Source: Gemmatimonadota bacterium (GTDB lineage Bacteria > Gemmatimonadota > Gemmatimonadetes > Palauibacterales > Palauibacteraceae). From it: a stretch of DNA of 64,000 nucleotides. The notes beneath the pieces were generated by a model. It saw only the letters and a list, made by a program, of their open reading frames with translations. It had not been told where the DNA came from and made no database searches. Numbering within the stretch: position 1 is the first letter of the stretch; each line of letters begins with the position of its first letter. Shown here piece after piece: positions 3,151 through 23,352 of this stretch. The position numbers and the translations under genes were made by a program. The stretch spans positions 7,114 through 71,113 of the forward strand of contig JAWOIN010000069.1 in NCBI GenBank assembly GCA_046484665.1, given 5' to 3'.

Positions 3151-4151
3151 GTGGTTGACCCGAACTCGTTCCGCCGTTCCGCCGCCCCGCGCGACGAAAC
3201 CCGCGCACTCGACGCGATGCGGAGGGAGATCCGCGCCCGGCAGATGAGCCTGCTGACCGAGGAGGCCTACGTCTCCTGGGCGCGGCGCTACCTCCGCTTT
3301 CACGACGGCCGCGATCCGCGCGAACTCGGCGGCGAGGGAATCGCCGCCTTCCTCACCCACCTCGCCGTTCGCCGAAACGTCGCGCCGTCCACCCAGAGCC
3401 ATGCCTCGAGCGCCCTGCTCTTCCTGTATCGCGAGGTGCTCGGGACCGAGGTGAACCCACCGAAGGGCGTGGTGCGCCCGATGGCGCCGCGCCGGCTTCC
3501 CGTCGTGCTCACCCCCTCGGAGGTCCGGGCCGTGCTCGGTCAGATCCGGGGGGCGCACCGGCTCGCCGCGACCCTCCTGCACGGGAGCGGGCTCCGCCTG
3601 CTCGAGTGTCTCCGGCTGCGCGTCAAGGACGTCGACTTCGAGCGCCGCGAGATCCTCGTGCGGGCCGGCAAAGGCGACCGGGACCGCGTCACCATGCTGC
3701 CCGACAGCGCCCGTACCGCGCTGGGTCGGCACCTGCGCCGCGTGCAAGAGCAGCACGAGCGCGATCTCGCCGCCGGCGCCGGATGGGTAGTCCTGCCCCG
3801 CGCGCTCACGCTCAAGTACCCGAACGCCGGCCGCGAGTGGGCCTGGCAGTGGGTGTTTCCCGCCACACGGATCCACGCGGGGTCGGCTACCGGGCGGCGC
3901 TTCCGATACCACCTCCACGAGTCCGCCGTCCAGCGCGCCGTCAAGGAGGCCGTGCAGCGGAGCGCGTCCCGAAGAGGGCCACATGCCACACCTTCCGGCA
4001 CTCCTTCGCCACCCACCTGCTCGAGAGCGGCTACGACATCCGGACCGTCCAGGAGCTGCTCCGGCACCGTAGCGTCCGCACCACGATGGTCTACACCCAC
4101 GTCCTGAACCGCGGCGGCCTCGGTGTCCGCAGTCCCGCCGACGCGTTCTGA
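3151..4151 (+). pseudogene. intI: integron integrase IntI (tyrosine recombinase), interrupted by apparent 1-nt frameshift near 3961-3970
   Basis: Frame 1 ORF 3151..4107 carries [32 protein letters not shown] and the IntI-specific insert [21 protein letters not shown]; frame 0 ORF 3606..4151 carries [36 protein letters not shown]. The junction reads ..AVQRSASRR in one frame and ..[15 protein letters not shown] in the other. Confidence 0.85.
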
Positions 4152-4390
4152 CCGTCGGGCGGGAAGCCGATCCCCGCCCGCCCCCTCTCCCGCGTCCAGC
4201 CTCCTGCGACTTCTCATGCCCCTGCGGCGTCCCGAAGTGGCGCCCTGCGCGAACCGCGCCTAGATTTTTCCACGCGCCCCACATCACCGAATTGCGTGCG
4301 GTTCGGCACATCGCCCGCACCGCTCGCAAGTCAACATCCCGGCCCGGGCTCCGTGCATCAGCCGCGTACCGTGCGGGAGGGGGCTGGGGT

Positions 4391-4416
4391 GTTGGGATGT
4401 CTGCTAGGAGTTAGAT
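4391..4416 (+). other. candidate attI / first cassette junction (GTTAGAT at 4410-4416, GTTGGGA at 4391-4397) in lower-GC spacer downstream of intI
   Basis: GTTRRRY-type box in the only lower-GC stretch between intI stop and first cassette ORF; position inferred, not proven. Confidence 0.3.
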
Positions 4417-4444
4417 GGCTATCAAACTCTGGGGCTAGACGGGA

Positions 4445-4822
4445 ATGAAGCGGAATATGGACTTGATCAGAGAGCTGCTTCTCTACTTCGAGGAGAAACC
4501 AGACGCCGCAGCCGTTGAGCCCTCTGAAATCTCGATTCCTGGTCCCGATTCCGACGATATCGCCTATCACATAGTCCTCTTGTCGGAAGCCGGCCTCCTC
4601 AGTCATGAGCGAGTCGAAAGCACGACGACGCCGAGCCGTCTCATCAAGTCGATACCATTCCGGCTTACTTGGGAAGGGCACGAGTTCCTCGATTCCGCTC
4701 GAAACCAGTCCACCTGGGAGCGTGCGAAGACCACCCTTGCCGCCAAGGGACTTGCCACTAGCTACGAACTCCTTAAGGCCCTCCTACTCAGCTACGGCAA
4801 ACAGCAGCTCGGTCTCAGCTAG
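4445..4822 (+). CDS. DUF2513-like hypothetical protein (cassette 1)
   Basis: ORF track; N-terminal MDLIRELLLYFEE pattern recalled from DUF2513 family; followed directly by attC. Confidence 0.5.
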   Translation: MKRNMDLIRELLLYFEEKPDAAAVEPSEISIPGPDSDDIAYHIVLLSEAGLLSHERVESTTTPSRLIKSIPFRLTWEGHEFLDSARNQSTWERAKTTLAAKGLATSYELLKALLLSYGKQQLGLS

Positions 4823-4833
4823 TGCGACACGCC

Positions 4834-4919
4834 ATCTAACACACGCCTGGAGCTGACGCGGAGGTGACTGTGGGCGGACGAATGATCGTGTCGCGCAGCT
4901 CAGGCGCTCACCGTCAGGT
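4834..4919 (+). repeat. attC site 1 (R'' ATCTAAC 4834-4840 ... R' GTCAGGT 4913-4919)
   Basis: Shares inner core GCCTGGAGCTGACGCG ... CGCGCAGCTCAGGCG with other attCs; imperfect inverted repeat with bulged bases. Confidence 0.7.
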
Positions 4920-4936
4920 CTGCGGGTAGGGGAGGA

Positions 4937-5260
4937 CTACTTGGCCGGGACCTCGCGGGACCGTTTGCGACGAGGCCGTACGACGTCGAGCACCGCATCC
5001 GGGTGTCGCGCTGCTACCCGCAGCAGCACGCGCGCCGGCCCCCGGGGGGTGCGCCGGCCCTGCTCCCAGTTCTGGAGCGTGCGTACGCTGATTCCGAGCA
5101 ACGAGGCGAACTTCTCTTGCGACAGCCCGTACGCCTCCCGAATCGCGGTCACGTCCTTCTCCGGAAGCTCGAAGGTCCGGACTGCCGCCTCCTTCTCTTT
5201 CAGGATCCGGCCGCCCTGGAGCACACTGGCCTCGAGCTCCGCGAACAGGTCCTTCTTCAC
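4937..5260 (-). CDS. higA: HigA-2-like antitoxin, XRE-family HTH (GTG start)
   Basis: ..AIREAYGLSQEKFASLLGISVRTLQNWEQGRRTPRGPARVLL.. HTH; starts 1 nt after overlapping toxin stop; real start GTG at 5260, not the 230-aa track ORF. Confidence 0.8.
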   Translation of the reverse strand: MKKDLFAELEASVLQGGRILKEKEAAVRTFELPEKDVTAIREAYGLSQEKFASLLGISVRTLQNWEQGRRTPRGPARVLLRVAARHPDAVLDVVRPRRKRSREVPAK

Positions 5261-5574
5261 CTGTATTCCTCCTCGACGATCCGGTGCAGGACCTTCTTCT
5301 GCTCCGGGCTCAGATCGCTGCGCTCGTTCTTGACGAAGACCATGAGCATGAGGATCGTCTCGTGAGACCCGGCCCAGTAGTAAATGACGCGTACGCCGCC
5401 GCGCTTGCCCCTGCCCGGGGTACGCCAGCGGATCTTCCGCAGGCCGCCCGCACCCGGAATCAGGCTTCCGGCCTCCGGGTCGGCGGCGAGACGTAGTTGC
5501 AGAAGCCGGTAGCTCTCCGGGTCCAGCAGCTCCTGGACGCGTCGGGAGAAGACCTCCGTCTCCTGAATCAGCAC
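5257..5574 (-). CDS. higB: HigB-2-like toxin (RelE/ParE superfamily, Gp49-like)
   Basis: GAGGLRKIRWRTPGRGKRGGVRVIYYW...ILMLMVFVKNERSDLSPEQKKVL matches HigB-2 signature GTGGLRKIR..GKGKRGG.R.IYY; toxin-first operon order. Confidence 0.85.
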   Translation of the reverse strand: MLIQETEVFSRRVQELLDPESYRLLQLRLAADPEAGSLIPGAGGLRKIRWRTPGRGKRGGVRVIYYWAGSHETILMLMVFVKNERSDLSPEQKKVLHRIVEEEYR

Positions 5575-5582
5575 CCGATAGC

Positions 5583-5599
5583 ATACGCCATTGGCGTAT
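5583..5599. promoter_or_regulatory. perfect 8-1-8 palindrome ATACGCCA-T-TGGCGTAT immediately upstream of higB start; candidate operator
   Basis: Seen directly in sequence; located 9 nt upstream of the GTG start of higB on the minus strand. Confidence 0.4.
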
Positions 5600-5620
5600 T
5601 CCCGACAAGGAGTGTTCGAG

Positions 5621-5709
5621 ACCTAACACTCGCCTGGAGCTGACGCGATGGGTTCAACGTGCAGACAACAGACAATCCAGGCGCGCAGCTCAGGCGTTCA
5701 CCGTTAGGC
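5621..5709 (+). repeat. attC site 2 (R'' ACCTAAC ... inner repeats GCCTGGAGCTGACGCG / CGCGCAGCTCAGGC ... R' GTTAGGC 5703-5709)
   Basis: R''/R' complementary 6/7; inner repeats complementary with two unpaired bases (extrahelical-base pattern). Confidence 0.8.
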
Positions 5710-5739
5710 GGCAACGTGGACGACACACGTGGAGACGCG

Positions 5740-6141
5740 ATGAGAATAGCCCTGGCACTCTTGGCTACGCTGTTGATCATGTACGTGGTCACCTTCGTGA
5801 TCTACGGCGTCGTAGCCGCCGTAACAGGTCTGGAACCGCCGCAGGATGGCTCGCCAGCGCGGTTCCTTCTCGGTGTCCTGATTACCAAGCTCGGCCTGGC
5901 CCTGGGGTTCGTGTTGTTGTTCGCCCTGGCGCGTGAAGTGTGGCAAGCCCGCTGGCCGGTCTATGCTCTCATCTGGTGGGTTCTCTTCGCTGTTTCGGAA
6001 ATCGGGCAGGCCGTCGCGCCGGGGTACTCGTGGCTTGAGGCCGCGGGCGGGATCATGGCCGAGGCGGTCTACTGCCCCCTTTCCGCGTGGGCGACGGCGC
6101 GCCTGCTGGGTGGCCGCGGCGCGGGACGGGTTGCCGCCTAA
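5740..6141 (+). CDS. small polytopic membrane protein, unknown function (cassette 3)
   Basis: ATG 5740 in frame of ORF 5659..6141; three hydrophobic helices; TAA stop lies inside R'' GCCTAAC of next attC. Confidence 0.5.
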   Translation: MRIALALLATLLIMYVVTFVIYGVVAAVTGLEPPQDGSPARFLLGVLITKLGLALGFVLLFALAREVWQARWPVYALIWWVLFAVSEIGQAVAPGYSWLEAAGGIMAEAVYCPLSAWATARLLGGRGAGRVAA

Positions 6142-6249
6142 CTAGCGCATGCAGCCGACATCCGGCTCAGTCACTCGCGCTGCATTCGGCCTGACGGCCG
6201 GCAGCGCTCGCGCCATCGCCGGCTGCGGCTGATGCGCGATTCGTTAGGC
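6136..6249 (+). repeat. attC site 3, different sequence family (R'' GCCTAAC 6136-6142 ... R' GTTAGGC 6243-6249)
   Basis: Perfectly complementary R''/R'; inner repeats GCGCATGCAGCCG / CGGCTGATGCGC complementary with one bulged base. Confidence 0.75.
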
Positions 6250-6306
6250 GGGCCGCGGTGATACTCCGTATACTCTAGGGAGGCATCCATTCATCGGAGA
6301 AACCGC

Positions 6307-6522
6307 GTGAAGAACGAGTTTACGGCGATCATTGAGCAGGACGGAGACTGGTACATCGCCTACTGCCCCGGGATCCCGGGCGCGAATGGGCAGGGACATA
6401 CACGAGATGAGGCGAGGCGAGTCTCGCCGAAGCTATTGCGCTCATTCTCGATGATCGCCGGGAAGACGGCCTGCGAGGGCTTCCTGCGGACGCCGAGCAG
6501 GATACCGTCACGGTCGATTGAA
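6307..6522 (+). pseudogene. hicB: HicB-family antitoxin, frameshifted near 6412-6425
   Basis: MKNEFTAIIEQDGDWYIAYCPGIPGANGQGHTRDEARR in one frame; ESLAEAIALILDDRREDGLRGLPADAEQDTVTVD in another frame ending TGA ~6520-6522. Confidence 0.7.
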
Positions 6523-6709
6523 GCGTAGCGCGCTTCTTCGTCACCGGCGCCGCCATGGCTGCTATCTCAAGCGGGAAGGTAGCTCTCACTCCCTTCGGAT
6601 CAATCCTCAGACGGGCGAAGTGCAGGCGATTCCCAGGCGCGCTGAGATTCCCGATCGCTTGGCACACCGAATCTGCTGCGGCCTCTCAGTACCAGAGCTC
6701 GGCAGGTGA
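6518..6709 (+). CDS. hicA: HicA-family toxin (YcfA-like), TTG start
   Basis: MKRSALLRHRRRHGCYLKREGSSHSLRINPQTGEVQAIPRRAEIPDRLAHRICCGL matches HicA HGC.L.REG.HS..NP.TG...PRH.EIP..LA..IC pattern. Confidence 0.75.
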   Translation: MKRSALLRHRRRHGCYLKREGSSHSLRINPQTGEVQAIPRRAEIPDRLAHRICCGLSVPELGR

Positions 6710-6718
6710 CTCGCAACC

Positions 6719-6807
6719 GCCTGACACGCGCCTGGAGCTGACGCGATGGGTTCAAAGTGCACACGCCAGCCAATCTGGGTGCGCAGCCCAGGCACTGACC
6801 GTTGGGC
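6719..6807 (+). repeat. attC site 4 (R'' variant GCCTGAC ... R' GTTGGGC 6801-6807)
   Basis: Same inner core as attC 1/2; begins 10 nt after hicA stop. Confidence 0.7.
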
Positions 6808-6822
6808 GGACGAAGCTCTGAA

Positions 6823-7569
6823 ATGACCATTCTCCTCCTGTTCACCTTGTATGCGATCGCCCTGTCAGCCGCGCTGGCACTGACAGGACACCGATCGCAG
6901 ACCTCTCCCTCGGGGGCGGCACCTCGCCACCCTCCCAGGCGGCTGCTGGTTGTGGGAGCGACCGGCGGTACTGGTCGTCAGCTTCTCGTGCAAGCGCTGG
7001 AGCGAGGTTACGAGGTCACGGCATTCGTCCGAGATCCTTCACGGCTTTCGATCGCTCATCGTCGACTGACCGTCGTGCGGGGTGATGTGCTCGACTTCGA
7101 TTCCGTAGACACTGCGATGCGCGGACAAGATGCGGTGCTGTCGGCTCTTGGCCACAAGCGGTTCTTCTACCCGACTCGCATCCTCTCGGAGGGCACTCGC
7201 AATATCCTGCGGGCCATGGAGAGCAAAGGCGTCCGGCACCTGGTGTGCGAGACCGCTATGGGAATCGGAGACAGTGCCGGGCGAATGGGCCTGTACTACA
7301 CGCTCTTCGTCATTCCGGTGATTCTGCCGTTCTACTTCTGGGACAAGACCCGGCAGGAACGGGTGATCGCGGGGAGTAATCTGGAATGGGTGATCGTGCG
7401 ACCCGGGATGCTGACCAACGGCGCCAGGCGGAGTTCGTATCGTCATGGTCGTCGCATCGGCAGCTTCCTCCGGACCGTGCGGATCTCCCGTGCCGACGTG
7501 GCGGACTTCATGCTCAACCAGCTGGAGTCCGACACGTACGCCCGTACTGCAGTGGGCGTGTGTTGGTAG
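6823..7569 (+). CDS. NAD(P)H-binding NmrA/SDR-like protein
   Basis: LLVVGATGGTGRQLLVQALERGYEVTAFVRDPSRL Rossmann GxxGxxG motif; ATG 6823 in frame of ORF 6802..7569. Confidence 0.7.
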   Translation: MTILLLFTLYAIALSAALALTGHRSQTSPSGAAPRHPPRRLLVVGATGGTGRQLLVQALERGYEVTAFVRDPSRLSIAHRRLTVVRGDVLDFDSVDTAMRGQDAVLSALGHKRFFYPTRILSEGTRNILRAMESKGVRHLVCETAMGIGDSAGRMGLYYTLFVIPVILPFYFWDKTRQERVIAGSNLEWVIVRPGMLTNGARRSSYRHGRRIGSFLRTVRISRADVADFMLNQLESDTYARTAVGVCW

Positions 7570-7677
7570 AGCAGCCGGTATCTCGCCGCCGCCCGACAAG
7601 CCGCCGCAGCCGCCGAGCGGCGCGGCTTCGCCCGGCTGATTCCAGATGACCGTGAGCGCCGCTCGCGTCCGAGCGGC

Positions 7678-8223
7678 ATGGCGTCAGGCATCGCCGTTCA
7701 TCAGCGGAACTGGCGAAGAATGAGTCTGGAGGCCGACCAGCGCTCGTTGCTCTCCCGGTATCTGCAGGGGCCGGCGTTGCTCGAGCAGGCGGTTGCTGAC
7801 TTGAGCGACGCCGACCTCGATGCTCCTCCATCGGACGGCGGCTGGACCATTCGGCAGATCGTTCACCACGTCGTTGATGGGGATGATCTCTGGATGACGT
7901 GCATCAAGGCTGCACTCGGGAACGAGGAAGACGACTTCACTTTGGAGTGGTACTGGCAGCTACCGCAGGACACTTGGGCCGAGCGCTGGGGCTATGCACA
8001 CAGACCACTCGACGTTTCCCTGGCTCTGTTCGGGGCGATCCGAGCTCACATCGCCCAACTGGTGGAACGAGCACCTGACGGATGGAGTCGATCGATGCGT
8101 GTCCGGACGCCGCAAGGAACCGAGCGCGTGTCGGTCCGCGCTGTGCTCGAGATGCAGGCTGATCACGTATCGCATCACGTCGAGAGGATTGCCGCCATTC
8201 GCGCGGAGCGTGGTGACGCCTGA
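7678..8223 (+). CDS. DinB/YfiT-like (DinB_2) metal-dependent hydrolase-fold protein
   Basis: HHVVDGDDLW ... HxxxH-type motifs; TGA stop overlaps R'' of following attC. Confidence 0.65.
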   Translation: MASGIAVHQRNWRRMSLEADQRSLLSRYLQGPALLEQAVADLSDADLDAPPSDGGWTIRQIVHHVVDGDDLWMTCIKAALGNEEDDFTLEWYWQLPQDTWAERWGYAHRPLDVSLALFGAIRAHIAQLVERAPDGWSRSMRVRTPQGTERVSVRAVLEMQADHVSHHVERIAAIRAERGDA

Positions 8224-8306
8224 CACGCGCCTGGAGTTGACCCGGTAAACATCGCGGCGAGGAAGCGGAACATCTGGTCGCCCAGCTCAGGCGCTCGCCG
8301 TGGACG
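8218..8306 (+). repeat. attC site 5 (R'' GCCTGAC 8218-8224 ... degenerate R' GTGGACG 8300-8306)
   Basis: Core CGCCTGGAGTTGACCCGG ... CCCAGCTCAGGCGCTCGCCG related to other attCs. Confidence 0.6.
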
Positions 8307-8328
8307 TGCAGGCGGTCCCGTGTCTAGT

Positions 8329-8347
8329 GTATATTGGCGTCATATAC
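8329..8347. promoter_or_regulatory. AT-rich inverted repeat GTATAT-N7-ATATAC upstream of brnT; candidate promoter/operator
   Basis: Seen in sequence between attC 5 and brnT ATG (8355). Confidence 0.3.
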
Positions 8348-8354
8348 TCCTGCC

Positions 8355-8660
8355 ATGAACGGGTCCTCGGAGCAGCTGGAGGCGTGTACCGGCTTCGAAT
8401 GGGACGTCGGCAACGTCGACAGGAACCGGGAGAGTCACGGGGTCTCGAATGCCGAGTGCGAGCAGGTCTTCTTCCAGCGCCCGCTCCTCATCGCCCCTGA
8501 TCTCGAGCATTCCCACGAGGAGCCTCGCTTCGCTGCCCTCGGGCGCATGGCCGATGGCCGGCGACTCACGATCGTGTTCACGATCCGCGGCACGTTGATC
8601 CGCGTGATCTCGTCACGGCTGATGAGCCGCCGCGAGCGGAGGGTCTATGAGCAAGCGTAA
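8355..8660 (+). CDS. brnT: BrnT-family toxin (DUF497)
   Basis: FEWDVGNVDRNRESHGVSNAECEQVF...RLTIVFTIRGTLIRVISSR matches BrnT F.WD..N...HGI pattern; overlaps brnA start. Confidence 0.8.
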   Translation: MNGSSEQLEACTGFEWDVGNVDRNRESHGVSNAECEQVFFQRPLLIAPDLEHSHEEPRFAALGRMADGRRLTIVFTIRGTLIRVISSRLMSRRERRVYEQA

Positions 8661-8967
8661 GAAGCAGCCCAGAGTGCGTGAGCCCGTCCCGGAGTTCCGC
8701 TCCGAGGAAGAGGAGCGGGAGTTCTGGGCCGAGCACGACGTGGTCAACTACTTCGACTGGGAGAACTCCGTTCCGGGCTCGTTCCCCGCTCTCAAGCCCT
8801 CGACCCAGACGATCTCGCTCCGGCTGCCCAAGGCGCTCCTGGAGGACCTCAAGGCGCTCGCCAACGAACGCGATGTCCCCTACCAGAGCCTCCTCAAGGT
8901 CTACCTCGCCGAGCGCGTAGCCCGGGAGCGCGACCGCCGACGCCGACGCACCGAGGCTGACGTCTAA
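8647..8967 (+). CDS. brnA: BrnA-family antitoxin (CopG-like)
   Basis: EEEEREFWAEHDVVNYFDWEN...ISLRLPKALLEDLKALANERDVPYQSLLKVYLAERV; TAA stop overlaps R''. Confidence 0.75.
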   Translation: MSKRKKQPRVREPVPEFRSEEEEREFWAEHDVVNYFDWENSVPGSFPALKPSTQTISLRLPKALLEDLKALANERDVPYQSLLKVYLAERVARERDRRRRRTEADV

Positions 8968-9048
8968 TCCGCGCCTGGAGCTGACACGGAGGGTGACGGT
9001 GGACAGACATGCTCGGTCGTCGCGCAGCCCGGGCGCTCACCGTTAGGC
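8962..9048 (+). repeat. attC site 6 (R'' GTCTAAT ... R' GTTAGGC 9042-9048)
   Basis: Core CGCCTGGAGCTGACACGG ... CGCGCAGCCCGGGCGCTCACC. Confidence 0.75.
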
Positions 9049-9088
9049 GGTACTGAAAGGTTCCCGCGGAAACGAGGGGCTAGCAACC

Positions 9089-9436
9089 TTGGCTCGCGAC
9101 CCAGTTGACGTGGCTCAGGCACAGTTGGATGCGTACAACGCAGGCGACCTTGAGGCATTTCTCGAGTGCTACGCCGAGGAAGCGCAGATCGAGGACGGCG
9201 ACGGGAACGTCCTCATGGGTGATCGCGAGGCGATGCGCTTCTTCTATGAGACGCTCTTCAGCCAGAGTCCGGATCTGCACTGTGAACTCCGGTCTCGGAT
9301 CGACGTCGGCCGCTTCGTTGTGGACGAGGAGTACGTGACCGGAGCGCACCTGGAGGGTCTCCCAACCGAGATCCACGCGGCCGTGGTCTATCGCATCGAA
9401 GACGGGTTCATCCGGCACGTCCGCTTCCTAGTGTAG
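9089..9436 (+). CDS. NTF2-like (SnoaL/ketosteroid isomerase-like) small protein, TTG start
   Basis: ORF track; LDAYNAGDLEAFLECYAEEA..VVYRIEDGFIRHVRFLV pattern typical of NTF2-fold family. Confidence 0.55.
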   Translation: MARDPVDVAQAQLDAYNAGDLEAFLECYAEEAQIEDGDGNVLMGDREAMRFFYETLFSQSPDLHCELRSRIDVGRFVVDEEYVTGAHLEGLPTEIHAAVVYRIEDGFIRHVRFLV

Positions 9437-9443
9437 GTGTACC

Positions 9444-9573
9444 GCCTAGCACGCGCCTGGAGCTGACGGCGCGCGTGCCTGGCACGAGAGGGGTTGACTG
9501 ACTTGGTTCAGATCACTGGCGCGGCGCGCTGCCGGGGCGGCGAATGCCGCAGCTCAGGCGCTCGCCGTTATGC
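9444..9573 (+). repeat. attC site 7, long form (R'' GCCTAGC 9444-9450 ... R' GTTATGC 9567-9573)
   Basis: Core ACGCGCCTGGAGCTGACGGCGCGC ... CGCAGCTCAGGCGCTCGCC; ~130 bp. Confidence 0.65.
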
Positions 9574-9878
9574 CGACTCCCCGCATGGATAAGGACGAAG
9601 CCAGGGCAATACTCGCCGAGTGCCTCGCTTCGTACCGGGCTATGACCTATCCAGAGCTCGCGTTGCGAGTCGACACCGTCGAGACCGCTGAGATCCGGGC
9701 TCCGTCCGGAGTGCAGTATCAGCTTGAAGTCCAGTTCTTCTGGGATTCCAAGCCGAATCACGAGGTCAGAGTTATCGGTTCGGTCGACGACGGGGGTTGG
9801 CGGGCTTTTGTTCCCCTGTCCGACGACTTCATCCTGGCGCCGGATGGCACCTTCGTAGGCGAGCAGCCAGCAGATTGA
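9570..9878 (+). CDS. hypothetical protein (cassette 8), ATG created inside R' box GTTATGC
   Basis: ORF track; no recognisable motif; coding GC3 bias. Confidence 0.45.
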   Translation: MPTPRMDKDEARAILAECLASYRAMTYPELALRVDTVETAEIRAPSGVQYQLEVQFFWDSKPNHEVRVIGSVDDGGWRAFVPLSDDFILAPDGTFVGEQPAD

Positions 9879-9879
9879 C

Positions 9880-9967
9880 AAGCGCTGGCAGCTGACGCGG
9901 ACTGCAGTTGTGGCGTCAGACGCGCCGGCGATCGTGGCTGCGCAGCGGAAGCGCAAGACCGTCAGTC
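9880..9967 (+). repeat. attC site 8, degenerate (GCTGGCAGCTGACGCGG ... GCTGCGCAGCGG ... R' GTCAGTC 9961-9967)
   Basis: Retains GCAGCTGACGCGG / CGCAGCGG halves of the family core; R'' not clear. Confidence 0.4.
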
Positions 9968-9980
9968 GGCTTGAGCGGAC

Positions 9981-10769
9981 ATGATGGACGCGGGAACCTG
10001 CGATCGGTGGTATCAGACGCCGCGCGGCCGGTGGATCGGGCAACGCGAGGTAGCGTTGCTCCTTGGAGAGCTGCAACTTCATCCGGGCGAATCGCTGCTC
10101 GATGTAGCGTGTGGCACCGGCTTCTTCACGCGTGCTCTTGCGTCCGCGATGGGAGCGCCGGTCACCGGCGTCGATATCAGCCCAGAATGCGTGGCGTATG
10201 CGCGTCGTCGAGACACGGACAAGGTGTCCTACGAGGTCGCCGACGCACGTGCCCTGCCTTACGGAGCCGCGAGCTTCGACGTCGTCGTGTCGATCGCGGC
10301 ACTGTGCTTAATCGAAGAGGAACGCGCCGCTGTCCGCGAGATGTGTCGCGTCGCGCGCCGCCGGGTAGCCATCGGTCTACTGAATCGCCGGAGCCTCCTT
10401 TGGCTCCGGAAGGGTAGGAACGGTGGCCGCGGAGGCTACCGCGGTGCTCGCTGGCACACGACCGGCGAGGCCGCGGACCTGCTCAAGGGTCTGCCGGTGC
10501 AGCTTTCTCGGGTGCGGACCGCCATACACCTTCCGGGTGACGGGCGAATCGCGCGGGTCATGGAGCGCCTATGGCCGCCGTGGCTCCACACCGGCGCGTT
10601 CATGCTCGTGGTGGCAGACGTTGCTGCGGTTACCGATGCGCCACCTGACAGCAGCGTGCAGCGGACGGCGCTTCGCGCTGTCGCTGATGCTGAGCGTCAG
10701 GCGGCGTACCTTGAAATGGTACGAGTCCGTATTCGAACCGCGACGACGCTGCCACCCGGGTCAGTGTGA
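9981..10769 (+). CDS. class I SAM-dependent methyltransferase
   Basis: [16 protein letters not shown]...VTGVDIS...FDVVVS motifs I-III. Confidence 0.75.
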
Positions 10770-10779
10770 GGAGGCGTCA

Positions 10780-11271
10780 ATGAGTCCGAAGAAGGCCACG
10801 CAGAAATCCGGCGAGAGCACCACCGCGATCAACAGGAAGTCCAAGGGATTCACGGACGAGGAACGAGCTGCAATGAAGGAGCGCGCCCAGGAGCTGAAGG
10901 CGGAAGCAAGCGGCGGCGCGCGCGCGAGCAAGAACAGGGCGGACGGCGAAAGAGACGTGCTCGCGAAGATCGCCGAGATGCGGGAACCGGATCGCGCCAT
11001 GGCCAAGCGGTTTCATGCTGTCATCCTGGCCAGCGCGCCGACGCTCTCGCCGAACACCTGGTACGGGATGCCCGCGTACGCCAAGGGCGGCAAGGTCGTC
11101 TGCTTCTTCCAAAGCGCGCAGAAGTTCAAATCGAGGTATGCGACGTTCGGCTTCAGTGACGAGGCGAATCTCGACGAAGGCGCCATGTGGCCGACCTCTT
11201 TCGCACTGAAGGACTTGACCGCCGCCGAAGAGGCGAGGATCGGCGCTCTCGTGAGGAGAGCGGTGAGCTGA
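10780..11271 (+). CDS. DUF1801 (YdhG-like) domain protein
   Basis: [32 protein letters not shown] typical DUF1801 core; ATG 10780 preceded by GAGGAGG. Confidence 0.7.
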
Positions 11272-11542
11272 GGAGCGATCTCGGCATCGGGCCCCGACCA
11301 GGGGCCTTCGGTAGCTCCGACAGACCCGGCGATATCATTCTCACTGCTGAAAACGAGGATTCGGCATGGGCACGCCAGCCCATGCAATCGGTCGAGTAGC
11401 GTGAGGCAATCGGGAGAGCCGGCGTCACGGCACCGCCCGAAGTGGCGATGGCCGACCAGGTCCATCCGGTTCCGGCCTCACGGGTCCACGCTTTGGTCTG
11501 GCTTTGGCGGGAGCAGCGAGCGCCACCAGGGCAGTGAGCGCC

Positions 11543-11609
11543 GCCTGACCGGCGACTTCACCTGCCGACGGCCGCCCGGCAACCGCAGCTCCTTCGAGCA
11601 CAGGTGAGC
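11543..11609 (+). repeat. degenerate attC remnant (R''-like GCCTGAC ... CAGCTCCTTCGAGCACAGGTGAGCGG)
   Basis: Resembles 5' and 3' halves of array attCs (compare CAGCTCAGGCGCTCACCGTTAGGCGG). Confidence 0.3.
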
Positions 11610-11656
11610 GGCCCCGCTCGAAAGCCCCATTGCATCAGATGGGAGGACGCGCAGCG

Positions 11657-12169
11657 ATGGATTCGTCGGCACTCGAGTTCCTGCTTCGGTTCAATATCTG
11701 GGCGAACCGGCGTTTGTTGGATGCTATCGAGAGCCTGTCGGGAAACGCGGATCTGACTCCGATCCGAGACATGGTCGCGCACATTGTCGCGGCAGAGTGG
11801 ATCTGGATGGAACGGCTGGAGGGCGTCAGCCCGGGCGAAGTTCCGGCCTGGGTCGACGCAGAGGGACTGGAGCCCCTCCGGGAGCGGTTGGCGGTGGTCG
11901 AGACACGCAGAGCTGCCTTTCTGGAGACTCTGGATGAGAGCGGGACAAGGCGTGTGGTGGAGTTTCGGCTCCTCAACGGCAGTAGCGGAACGGCGGAAGT
12001 CTGGCAGCTGATGGTCCACGTCATCAATCACTCCACATATCATCGTGGGCAGCTGGCGAGACTGTTGCGCGAGGCCGGGGTGACCCCACCCACCACAGAC
12101 CTGATCTCCTTCTGTCCGGAGGGAGGCCAGTATCGGAGTCGAGAGTCGCGACGATCGGACTGCGAATGA
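11657..12169 (+). CDS. DinB-family protein (DinB_2)
   Basis: FNIWANRRLLDAIESL ... HVINHSTYHRGQLARLLREAG characteristic DinB C-terminus. Confidence 0.7.
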   Translation: MDSSALEFLLRFNIWANRRLLDAIESLSGNADLTPIRDMVAHIVAAEWIWMERLEGVSPGEVPAWVDAEGLEPLRERLAVVETRRAAFLETLDESGTRRVVEFRLLNGSSGTAEVWQLMVHVINHSTYHRGQLARLLREAGVTPPTTDLISFCPEGGQYRSRESRRSDCE

Positions 12170-12395: not shown

Positions 12396-12746
12396 ATGAA
12401 GAGCTACCTCCTTGTGCTGAACGAGGGCCCCTACGGAAACGAGCGTTCGTACAACGCGCTGCGTTTCGCCGCCGCGCTCCGCAAGCAGCCCGACGCGCTC
12501 GTGCGCGTCTTCCTGCTCGGCGAGGCCGCGTTCTGCGCCCTGAAGAACCAGGAAACGCCCCAAGGAATCTACAATATCGGACGGATGCTCCGGATCCTGA
12601 CGACTCACGGCGCCGTGGCCACGTGAGGCTCCTGCGCCAAGGCCCGCGGGATCGGGCCCGAGCAGCTCCTGGAGAAAGTGGAACTCGCGAGCATGGAGCA
12701 GCTGGCCGGCTGGGCTCACGAGAGCGATCAGGTTCTCGTGTTCTGA
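12396..12746 (+). CDS. DsrE/DsrF/YchN-like protein with in-frame TGA (12624-12626); candidate selenoprotein or nonsense pseudogene
   Basis: MKSYLLVLNEGPYGNERSYNALRFAAAL..HGAVAT-TGA-GSCAKARGIGPEQLLEKVELASMEQLAGWAHESDQVLVF; family-conserved C-terminus continues in same frame after TGA; GGAGG 8 nt upstream of ATG. Confidence 0.6.
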
Positions 12747-21817: not shown

Positions 21818-22396
21818 ATGCCTAGCATCACGACAGTCGCGCCGGAGAAGGCCAGAGGACTGCGAGGGCTCTTCTTTCGCTGGGTGCGTGGCCAGTACGG
21901 CGGCGTGGTTCCGGGCGTGTTTCAGGTTCTGGCGGTCGATCTCCGAGTCGCCGGCCCCGCGGGTTCCCTGTATCGCCACCTCCACCTCCGCAAGTCGTCG
22001 CCCCTCACCCGACTCCAGCGCGAGATGCTGGCGACGATCGTCAATGGCAAGGTGGGTGGGGCACCGTGACTGGGCCTCCACACGGCGGCCGTGCGTCGCC
22101 TGACCGGAGATGAGCACCTGAGTCACGAGTTCGCGACGACGTGGCCCGAGTACGACCTGGATTCCGGGACGAGAGCGCTGCTCCGCTACGCCAGCAAGCT
22201 GACCGAGACGCCGAGTTTCGTTGACGAGGAGGATGTCGGGCTGCTGCGGAGCGCCGGCTGGAGCGAGAAGGCGATCTGGGAGATCACAGCTCTCGTCGCC
22301 TTCTTCAACTTCAGCGGCCGACTCGAGGCCGCCTCGGGTCTGCCTCCGGACCAGATCCCGGAGGGAGCCGCGTTCGCGGAGGCGCGAGGCTCGTGA
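21818..22396 (+). CDS. carboxymuconolactone decarboxylase (AhpD/CMD)-like protein with in-frame TGA (22067-22069); candidate selenoprotein
   Basis: ..LQREMLATIVNGKVGGAP-TGA-LGLHTAAVRRLTGDEHL..; TGA sits 4 residues before His, the Cys position of AhpD CxxCxxxH; downstream frame continues with CMD-like sequence to 22396. Confidence 0.6.
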
Positions 22397-22413: not shown

Positions 22414-23352
22414 ATGAAAGCCCTGTCTGATGTCACCCGGTCGGTGGGTGGAACGCCCCTGGTGGAGTTGACGCGCATCGTCTCCCGGGGGCACGCCCGG
22501 GTTCTCGTGAAGCTCGAGAGCCACAACCCGACGGGCAGCATGAAGGACCGGATGGCCCTGTCCGTCGTCGATCGCGCCACGGCGTCGGGACGGCTGCCCG
22601 TCTCGGGGACGGTGGTGGAGTACACGGGCGGCAGCACGGGGACGTCCCTCGCGTTCGTGTGCGCGGCGCGGGGATTCGGAATCACGCTCGTGACGTCGGA
22701 CGCGTTCAGCCGGGAGAAGCGCGACCACATGCGCGCGCTGGGGGCCGCGGTGATCGAGATCGCGAGCGAGGACGGCCGGACCACGAAGGCGCTGATCCGG
22801 GGCATGATGGCGAAGGCGGCGGAGCTGAGCGACGCCCCCGGCGCCTTCTTCGCCGACCAGTTCAGCAACCCGGACGCGGCGGTCGGATACGCTCCGCTGG
22901 CCGAGGAGGCCTGGGACCAGGCCGGCGGGAGGATCGACGCCTTCGTGCAGTCCGTCGGCACCGCGCAGTGCCTCTCCGGGATCGCCCGGGTACTCCGGTC
23001 CCGGAACCCGGGGATCGAGATCGTCGCGGTCGAGCCCGCCGAGTCGCCGGTCCTCTCGGGTGGCGCCGCCGGCGCCCACGAGATCGAGGGCGTCGGACCC
23101 GGTTTCATCCCCCCCCTCTGGACCCCGGGTCTCGCCGACGCGGTGCTCGCGGTGTCCACGTCCGAGGCGAAGGCGATGTGCCGGCGACTGGCGCGGGAGG
23201 AGGTGCTGTTCGGCGGGACCTCGACCGGAGCCAACGTCGTGGCCGCGCTCCGGGTGGCGGAGCGCCTCGGGCCCGCCCGGACGGTCGTCACCCTGCTCTG
23301 CGACTCGGGCCTCAAGTACCTGTCGACGGATCTCTACTCGAGTACCTCCTGA
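22414..23352 (+). CDS. cysK: cysteine synthase (PLP-dependent, CysK/CysM family)
   Basis: LESHNPTGSMKDRMALSVV (PLP Lys), GGSTGTSLAFV, GTSTGANVVAA. Confidence 0.85.
   Translation: MKALSDVTRSVGGTPLVELTRIVSRGHARVLVKLESHNPTGSMKDRMALSVVDRATASGRLPVSGTVVEYTGGSTGTSLAFVCAARGFGITLVTSDAFSREKRDHMRALGAAVIEIASEDGRTTKALIRGMMAKAAELSDAPGAFFADQFSNPDAAVGYAPLAEEAWDQAGGRIDAFVQSVGTAQCLSGIARVLRSRNPGIEIVAVEPAESPVLSGGAAGAHEIEGVGPGFIPPLWTPGLADAVLAVSTSEAKAMCRRLAREEVLFGGTSTGANVVAALRVAERLGPARTVVTLLCDSGLKYLSTDLYSSTS

Follow-up and report, generated by a model that had tools for sequence, protein, structure and literature searches.

An AhpD-like gene of a Gemmatimonadota bacterium with an in-frame UGA that very probably encodes selenocysteine

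In the present study, we analysed an AhpD-like gene which is interrupted by an in-frame TGA and lies at positions 21818-22396 of a 64-kb window (the whole stretch of DNA under study, 64,000 nucleotides) from a metagenome-assembled genome (MAG) of a Gemmatimonadota bacterium. Our best explanation is that this stretch is one gene for a 192-residue selenoprotein of the AhpD/CMD fold (TIGR01926), in which the UGA at 22067-22069 is decoded as selenocysteine (Sec) 84 under the direction of a hairpin that follows it, and we put the probability of this reading at about 0.9. The in-frame TGA very probably encodes selenocysteine. One AhpD/CMD-like gene with Sec at the TGA was also the core of the original prediction, made from the letters of this DNA, and it is now supported by the family match of the read-through protein, by the pairing of Sec and Cys forms among the relatives, by a hairpin specific to the TGA forms and by the literature. 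Under ALTERNATIVES, we compared codon reassignment, sequencing error, a true stop or pseudogene, and read-through independent of Sec.

Results

Reading frame and comparative evidence for recoding

The first open reading frame (ORF), 21818-22069, closes at the TGA, after which the frame stays open up to a second TGA at 22394-22396. The starts of this ORF and of the next one in the list (22091-22396) are 273 nucleotides (nt), that is 91 codons, apart, and the frame check over 192 codons confirmed the earlier claim that both are a single frame split by the TGA. Around the interruption, the local reading is ..NGKVGGAP-TGA-LGLH... The GTG at 22091 is merely the first start-like codon past the TGA in the ORF list, and this start is not conserved. 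In the GenBank record, the C-terminal ORF of 101 amino acids (aa) alone is annotated, as the 'hypothetical protein' R6X22_05280, and the N-terminal ORF of 83 aa is absent from the protein collection.

A scan of species-representative genomes gave 53 loci with the gene, and TGA was present at this codon in every full-length match (50 genome loci). The metagenome scan, which returned no matches with one Cys-form protein as the query and succeeded when it was repeated with an alignment, yielded about 50 further TGA forms together with 10 divergent Cys forms. Overall, TGA was found at the same codon in 102 distinct 60-nt segments from genomes and metagenomes, which goes far past what chance would give. 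The TGA forms belong to about ten phyla, mostly to Gemmatimonadota, and they also come from Acidobacteriota, Desulfobacterota/Myxococcota, Ignavibacteriales, Calditrichaceae, Acidimicrobiia, Binatia, Eiseniibacteriota and Cytophagia. The carriers include two complete MAG chromosomes, OZ245046.1 (Eiseniibacteriota) and CP070650.1 (Myxococcales). The relatives from the genome scan share 74-86% amino-acid identity across about ten phyla. When 49 sequences were compared with the window protein, the identity was 84% over the 54 residues upstream of the TGA and 79% over the 100 residues downstream, and the only other in-frame stop among them was an extra TAA in the copy of Myxococcales bin861 (L033, position 10412, CP070650.1). 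This TAA lies 54 codons past the Sec codon, and the copy is a probable pseudogene or assembly error. In distant full-length homologs (48-56% identity), the TGA column is occupied by Cys. Both this Cys and the following His are invariant in 29 of the 29 Cys-form homologs (alignment A3), and most of the family representatives have Cys at the column.

The database entries may at first sight be read in another way, namely that the TGA is a genuine stop and that the locus is either a pseudogene or two small genes, an N-terminal one of 83 aa and a C-terminal one of about 101-108 aa. The protein search yielded two classes of match, full-length proteins of about 200 aa and many fragments of 105-108 aa that align with the query over its C-terminal 55% alone. 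When 1.84 billion cluster representatives were searched exhaustively, many of the matches were N-terminal fragments that stop exactly at ..VVNGxxGGAP or C-terminal ones that start just after it. The dozens of entries that are fragments of 105-108 or about 83 aa agree with a true stop, as do the annotation of the C-terminal ORF alone in GenBank and the resemblance of L033, with its extra TAA, to a pseudogene. But the TGA falls at the catalytic residue, precisely where homologs carry Cys, and conservation crosses it (..GGAP/LGLH..), while neither a start codon nor a ribosome-binding site is conserved behind it; the starts given to the fragments vary (MGLH, LH, MH, VRRL). Furthermore, more than 100 independent sequences have both halves under equal purifying selection, and a hairpin with constrained synonymous sites, as described below, would not be kept in a pseudogene. 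A genuine stop is therefore considered extremely unlikely.

The closest database homologs (P0001-P0004, P0006, P0009, P0010, P0013 and P0287) show Trp at the TGA column. In P0002 and P0013, which are encoded at loci L054 and L058, this 'Trp' is a TGA in the DNA, and re-translation under table 11 fails; their Trp is presumably a product of gene calling under table 4 on short contigs. Outside the clade, P0293 (CEYW) and P0368 (CHYW) look, from the protein letters alone, like classical CxxU AhpD-like selenoproteins that were mis-translated with Trp.

The TGA could also be a sequencing or assembly error in the MAG, the real codon being TGC or TGT. This idea gains something from a close relative (P0005, locus L055) with a real TGC and from another with TTA, but the 102 distinct sequences with TGA come from independent assemblies and samples, and near-identical JGI contigs from this very organism are among them. 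With the TGA present in over 100 independent assemblies, we regard an error as excluded, with a probability that is virtually nil.

A conserved hairpin after the UGA

A selenocysteine insertion sequence (SECIS) was looked for as a check on the AhpD-like gene, and a 17-nt SECIS-like hairpin that begins 14 nt past the UGA was found (Table 1), which bears out the expectation. The loop is N-G-U-N'-C, and its G-U is invariant in the 102 sequences. Three lines of evidence, which are pairing with covariation, synonymous constraint and the contrast with Cys forms, indicate that the hairpin is under selection.

Among the 612 stem cells of the 102 sequences, 99.3% were paired, and pairing was far poorer in shifted registers. 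The pair 25-39 is G-C in 85 sequences, A-U in 7, G-U in 6 and U-A in 4, with zero mismatches. In the A-U and U-A cases, Ala is changed to Thr or Ser (ACG/UCG) and the partner Arg codon is changed to CGU or CGA. Double changes were seen in 11 cells, where 1.1 would be expected, and none of 500 shuffles reached the observed values, statistics which are inflated by the relatedness of the sequences. The stem lies over the invariant peptide TAAVRRL, and therefore the entropy of four-fold synonymous sites was measured along the whole gene. The mean was 0.56 bit at codons +5 to +10 versus 1.52 bit at the 66 other sites, and the five lowest values of the gene were all located inside the hairpin. The TGA forms keep 5.96 of the 6 stem pairs, whereas the Cys forms keep 2.55 of 6. 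In the TGA forms, the stem Arg codons are CGC, CGU or the compensating CGA only, while the Cys forms use CGG, CGA and AGG freely. Among the non-TGA forms, the hairpin is retained only in the TGC form (L055) and in the TTA form.

In E. coli, the minihelix bound by SelB has 17 nt, a conserved loop G23/U24 and a bulged U, and it lies 11 nt from the UGA (PMC8659212). The present hairpin is similar to the E. coli fdhF SECIS in that it is a 17-nt stem-loop soon after the UGA, within the coding sequence (CDS), and in that the G and U of the loop are conserved. Rfam gave no match at the gathering threshold, and a permissive scan returned a spurious snoRNA match only, which is taken to mean that Rfam holds no model covering this element.

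Loop positions 1 and 4 (loop 22090-22094; columns 30-34 of alignment A4) were complementary in 102 of 102 sequences (C..G in 38, A..U in 40, G..U in 18 and G..C in 6). The loop G-U is possibly an extruded dinucleotide; the complementarity could instead reflect lineage structure.

The exceptional loci were also recorded. The TGC form (L055, position 3082) has 76% identity and keeps the full 6-bp hairpin, and by its sequence it seems to have switched from Sec to Cys recently, its SECIS being a relic. The TTA form (P0007; L056, position 2448, and L057, position 364; several contigs) has Leu for the Sec codon with an intact hairpin, and a transposase of an insertion sequence (IS) family is located about 1.5 kb downstream; this lineage may be an inactive or repurposed copy. 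In addition, some Gemmatimonadota genomes have two Sec-form copies. In L005 these are at 6895 and 9964, about 3 kb apart on one contig, and L028 and L042 are two Sec-form copies of the same MAG (M8-58_Bin_309).

Protein family and active site

With Cys put in for the TGA, the read-through protein scored 95.2 bits against NCBIfam TIGR01926 ('peroxidase-related enzyme'), for which the curated cutoff is 81.8 bits, and the match covers residues 29-178 and spans the TGA. The precomputed Pfam field was empty for all homologs. The solved AhpD-like structures 3c1l, 2pfx, 6k40, 2oyo and 2prr align over residues 13/28-178 with E-values from 1e-23 to 4e-11 (9.6e-23 for 3c1l, 1.9e-21 for 2pfx and 1.4e-19 for 6k40), and the AhpD fold is fixed by this homology to five solved structures. 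All five carry C-x-x-C-x-x-x-H. Their second Cys stands opposite the TGA, and their first Cys is opposite the second Gly of GGAP, Gly81 (..hCyyC.. versus ..ggapC..).

Glu69, Sec84 and His88 are at the canonical spacing (E+15, +4; Glu-x14-Sec-x3-His). The (Q/E)REM motif around Glu69 is conserved family-wide, and His88 is nearly invariant in alignment A1 and invariant in the Cys-form alignment A3. M. tuberculosis AhpD has Glu118, Cys130, His132, Cys133 and His137 in its active site, with a Glu-Cys-Cys-His proton relay, and in the literature the first Cys of CxxC, Cys130, is given as an invariant and essential residue of AhpD-like proteins (PMC3141380). In the same enzyme, Cys133 is exposed and forms the mixed disulfide with AhpC, and Cys130 is its partly buried partner (PMC6626918). 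Because the TGA is aligned to the exposed, AhpC-attacking Cys133, it takes the place of the attacking Cys and not of the resolving one. Thus, the original prediction placed the TGA correctly at four residues before the conserved His, but its assignment of this site to the resolving Cys has to be corrected.

The first Cys of the AhpD-type CxxC is absent here, and Gly81 stands at that site. All 102 TGA sequences have the motif G-A-P-U, with S for P in one, and 44 of 51 Sec forms have no Cys anywhere. The CxxC motif is present in 62 of about 88 full-length family representatives; the present clade has G or A at the first Cys and is set apart from the other representatives by its motifs GGAP-U/C, GAKP-C and GGAS-C. 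In the Cys-form sister clade (alignment A3, for example P0036 and P0052; about 50% identity), the His is usually followed at once by a second Cys (PCLSAHCE), at a site that is Thr in the Sec forms. From this arrangement, it seems that the Cys forms depend on a resolving thiol of their own and that the Sec forms can dispense with one. The Cys of CxxxHC, peculiar to the Cys forms, is a candidate for this resolving Cys.

Evidence for and against selenocysteine decoding in the organism

The window contains a second gene with an in-frame TGA, a DsrE/TusD-like selenoprotein candidate (Table 1). Its motif at the TGA is ..AVAT-U-GSC... Its four nearest relatives are fragments of 76 aa that break off at AVAT, and the full-length homologs all have CGSC or CGTC, with Cys invariant at the TGA. 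The hairpin of this gene, GGCCCG-CGGGAU-CGGGCC, begins at +18 from the U of the UGA, an offset identical to that in the AhpD-like gene. DsrE-like proteins with UxxC are a published selenoprotein family (PMC1088965). The Sec/Cys signature of the DsrE-like gene and the same hairpin geometry are therefore independent evidence that the organism decodes UGA as Sec, and the argument of the original prediction, that two TGA genes of Sec-prone families in one window speak for the use of Sec, holds good.

The DsrE-like gene is at the right edge of a stretch, 4001-12000, with a GC content of 0.63-0.65 versus 0.68-0.75 elsewhere in the window. This low-GC stretch may be an acquired island.

Several results weigh against the selenoprotein reading of the AhpD-like gene. 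Pfam, including CMD (PF02627), gave no family match to the protein at E<=0.01. In folding calculations, the hairpin alone was not more stable than shuffled sequence of 70% GC (z about 0), only one of its six pairs can show full covariation because the stem overlaps the invariant peptide, and the inflated shuffle statistics belong here as well. The hairpin also differs from the E. coli fdhF SECIS, since it lies at 14 nt and not at 11, has a perfect 6-bp stem without the bulged U, and has a 5-nt loop. Furthermore, the 64-kb window and 1.07 Mb of related loci yielded none of selA, selB, selD and tRNA-Sec. These searches consisted of Pfam scans of the 20 larger window ORFs, motif regular expressions, and tblastn on the 1.07 Mb with E. 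coli SelD and SelA queries, and their negatives are uninformative for the whole genome. No tRNA-Sec was detected in the window or the 53 loci. A 95-nt 'tRNA-Arg(cct)' reported by ARAGORN at 18131-18225 of L009 was rejected as a probable false positive; it resembles a signal-peptide coding region and is not a tRNA-Sec. The capacity of the host to decode Sec is thus one that we infer. Finally, the proposed enzymology, that is the substrate, the reductant and the one-Sec cycle, is entirely extrapolated from sequence across an uncharacterised clade.

The UGA might be read through without Sec, either by a near-cognate Trp or Cys at a leaky UGA-C, perhaps with stimulation by the hairpin, or because the organism uses a reassigned code (table 4 or 25). 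UGA-C is the leakiest termination context, and the base after the TGA is C in 96 of 102 sequences. Some pipelines put Trp at the site, and the failure to find machinery genes in the DNA covered agrees with such a reading. However, codon reassignment is rejected because TGA is the main stop of the window and terminates 36 of its 53 predicted genes, the AhpD-like gene included. Insertion of Trp or Cys by read-through does not fit the relatives, which have Cys at the site and never TGG in the DNA examined. In addition, selenoproteins are well established in this family (PMC13188914), the hairpin matches the SelB-binding minihelix in size and in its loop G-U (PMC8659212), and the arrangement recurs in the window in a second gene of a Sec-prone family. 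Nothing specifically supports read-through independent of Sec, and we judge it very unlikely.

Features and gene neighbourhood

Table 1. Positions of the AhpD-like gene, its key codons and hairpin, and the two other genes discussed, in coordinates of the window
Feature	Position	Strand	Details
AhpD-like (TIGR01926) selenoprotein CDS	21818..22396	+	192 aa; Sec at residue 84; true stop TGA 22394-22396
Glu69 codon GAG	22022..22024	+	15 residues ahead of Sec84; counterpart of Glu118 in the M. tuberculosis AhpD relay
Gly81 codon	22058..22060	+	Site of the first Cys of CxxC in canonical family members
In-frame UGA as Sec84 (very probable)	22067..22069	+	Next base C (UGAC)
His88 codon CAC	22079..22081	+	4 residues past Sec84; counterpart of His137 in M. 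tuberculosis AhpD
SECIS-like hairpin, 17 nt	22084..22100	+	Stem 22084-22089 GGCGGC / 22095-22100 GUCGCC; loop 22090-22094 CGUGC; codons Thr89-Leu95
DsrE/TusD-like selenoprotein candidate	12396-12746	+	116 aa; TGA 12624-12626; hairpin 12641-12658
PALP / cysteine-synthase-family gene	22414..23352	+	17 nt downstream of the AhpD-like gene; PF00291 at 1.6e-65

A cysteine synthase gene had been noted directly downstream, and a PALP gene does follow after a short gap (Table 1), but it is not a conserved partner. Among about 53 other loci, it adjoins the AhpD-like gene in L011 alone, and it was rejected in that role. Its product scored 278 bits against the cysKM model, under the cutoff of 344 bits, and is below the CysK/CysM cutoffs; GenBank names it 'cysteine synthase family protein'. 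In the window, the two genes may be co-transcribed. No sigma-70 promoter-like or intrinsic terminator-like sites were detected around the AhpD-like gene, and none between it and the PALP gene. The upstream neighbour is a beta-lactamase-family hydrolase gene, and no ahpC is adjacent in the window.

Elsewhere, other neighbours recur. A divergently transcribed upstream regulator of the TetR family was found in 13 loci, and in 14 loci the gene adjoins one for a secreted protein (about 260-330 aa) that matched no family; L004, L013, L014, L017, L024, L054 and L056 are among the loci with such neighbours, and both are absent at the window locus. In 4-5 loci (L003, L009, L019, L026 and L028), a response-regulator/thioredoxin-reductase-like fusion protein and a second, single-Cys protein of the CMD family (..NEYCTSLH..) are encoded about 2-4.5 kb away. 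The fusion protein and the single-Cys CMD protein are possible redox partners.

Discussion

Under the selenoprotein reading, the ribosome would reach the UGA at codon 84 and the hairpin would display its invariant loop G-U. By analogy with the E. coli fdhF element, the hairpin would recruit SelB with Sec-tRNA(Sec) and Sec would be inserted, and translation would then run on until the second UGA, an ordinary stop without a hairpin of this kind. This recoding step is well supported. Sec84 would occupy the exposed attacking-Cys site of E-x11-C-x-x-C-x3-H, and Glu69 and His88 may serve as the proton relay. The probable target of the selenolate would be either a peroxide or an oxidised partner, for example a peroxiredoxin, and a selenenic acid or a mixed Se-S intermediate would be formed. 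Regeneration by an external thiol or a thioredoxin-type reductant would then follow, as in the chemistry of 1-Cys peroxiredoxin and glutathione peroxidase. Since Sec84 lacks a vicinal Cys and Cys is absent altogether from 44 of 51 Sec forms, an external thiol or reductase would have to resolve the oxidised Se, and the classical intramolecular dithiol exchange of AhpD would not be possible. The gene appears to be a stress gene that stands on its own and is widely exchanged.

AhpD-like proteins (COG2128/TIGR01926) have been recognised as selenoproteins since the Sargasso Sea survey, and they are among the most abundant selenoproteins in ocean metagenomes (PMC1088965, PMC2398784, PMC9312934, PMC13188914). 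Hence the statement of the original prediction that the family is a known one for selenoproteins agrees with the literature (PMC1088965, PMC2398784, PMC13188914), and a specialist would expect an AhpD-like selenoprotein. The published motif is always CxxU (PMC1088965, PMC2398784, PMC9312934, PMC13188914), and TIGR01926 is listed with it (PMC13188914). The present gene shows all the features that define this group in the literature save one, the first Cys, and its G-A-P-U departs from the published CxxU motif. We tentatively propose, as a possibility that falls somewhat short of an even chance, that the G-A-P-U proteins are a distinct and undescribed clade of the AhpD fold with a lone Sec, a one-selenol cycle that depends on an external reductant or acts on a substrate other than AhpC, a Cys-form sister clade that makes up for the lost Cys with a different second one (CxxxHC), and horizontal spread over at least 10 soil and sediment phyla.

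The importance of these findings lies mostly in annotation quality. Gene calls in GenBank, JGI, ENA and Logan split or truncate the gene, which sometimes carries Trp under table 4; therefore, a widespread selenoprotein of the antioxidant type goes unseen in Gemmatimonadota, Acidobacteriota and other phyla of soil and sediment, for which the coverage of selenoproteome surveys is poor. Together, the AhpD-like and DsrE-like genes mark the MAG as a user of selenocysteine. The invariant 17-nt hairpin is a compact SECIS, which could help to find or express such genes. The single-Sec site is a small biochemical point, a natural case where selenium may make the resolving Cys dispensable.

Among the known systems, the marine AhpD-like selenoproteins ('AhpD-like 1' of the Sargasso Sea and Global Ocean Sampling (GOS) data) are similar to the present protein in belonging to TIGR01926, in having Sec at the second Cys of CxxC, four residues before the His, and in having a bacterial SECIS just downstream; their genes, too, are routinely truncated in databases. 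They differ in the motif, which is CxxU there and G-A-P-U here, where the first Cys is absent. The published AhpD-like forms are from surface-ocean plankton, whereas the present clade is mainly from sediment and soil Gemmatimonadota and Acidobacteriota. M. tuberculosis AhpD shares the spacing E-x14-[Cys133/Sec84]-x3-His, but the counterpart of its Cys130 is Gly81, so that no intramolecular disulfide step would be available; the window protein also has the chain topology of the TIGR01926 group, about 190 aa long, and no adjacent ahpC. The structures 3c1l (Mlr4105), 2pfx, 2oyo, 2prr and 6k40 (AhpD) have in common with it the REM..(C)..H core and the C-terminal FN..R motif, but they have CxxCxxxH with Cys, none has Sec, and their roles are mostly uncharacterised. 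By functional analogy, the protein may be compared with glutathione peroxidase and the 1-Cys peroxiredoxins, whose folds are unrelated, and in which a single redox Sec or Cys is likewise recycled by an external thiol.

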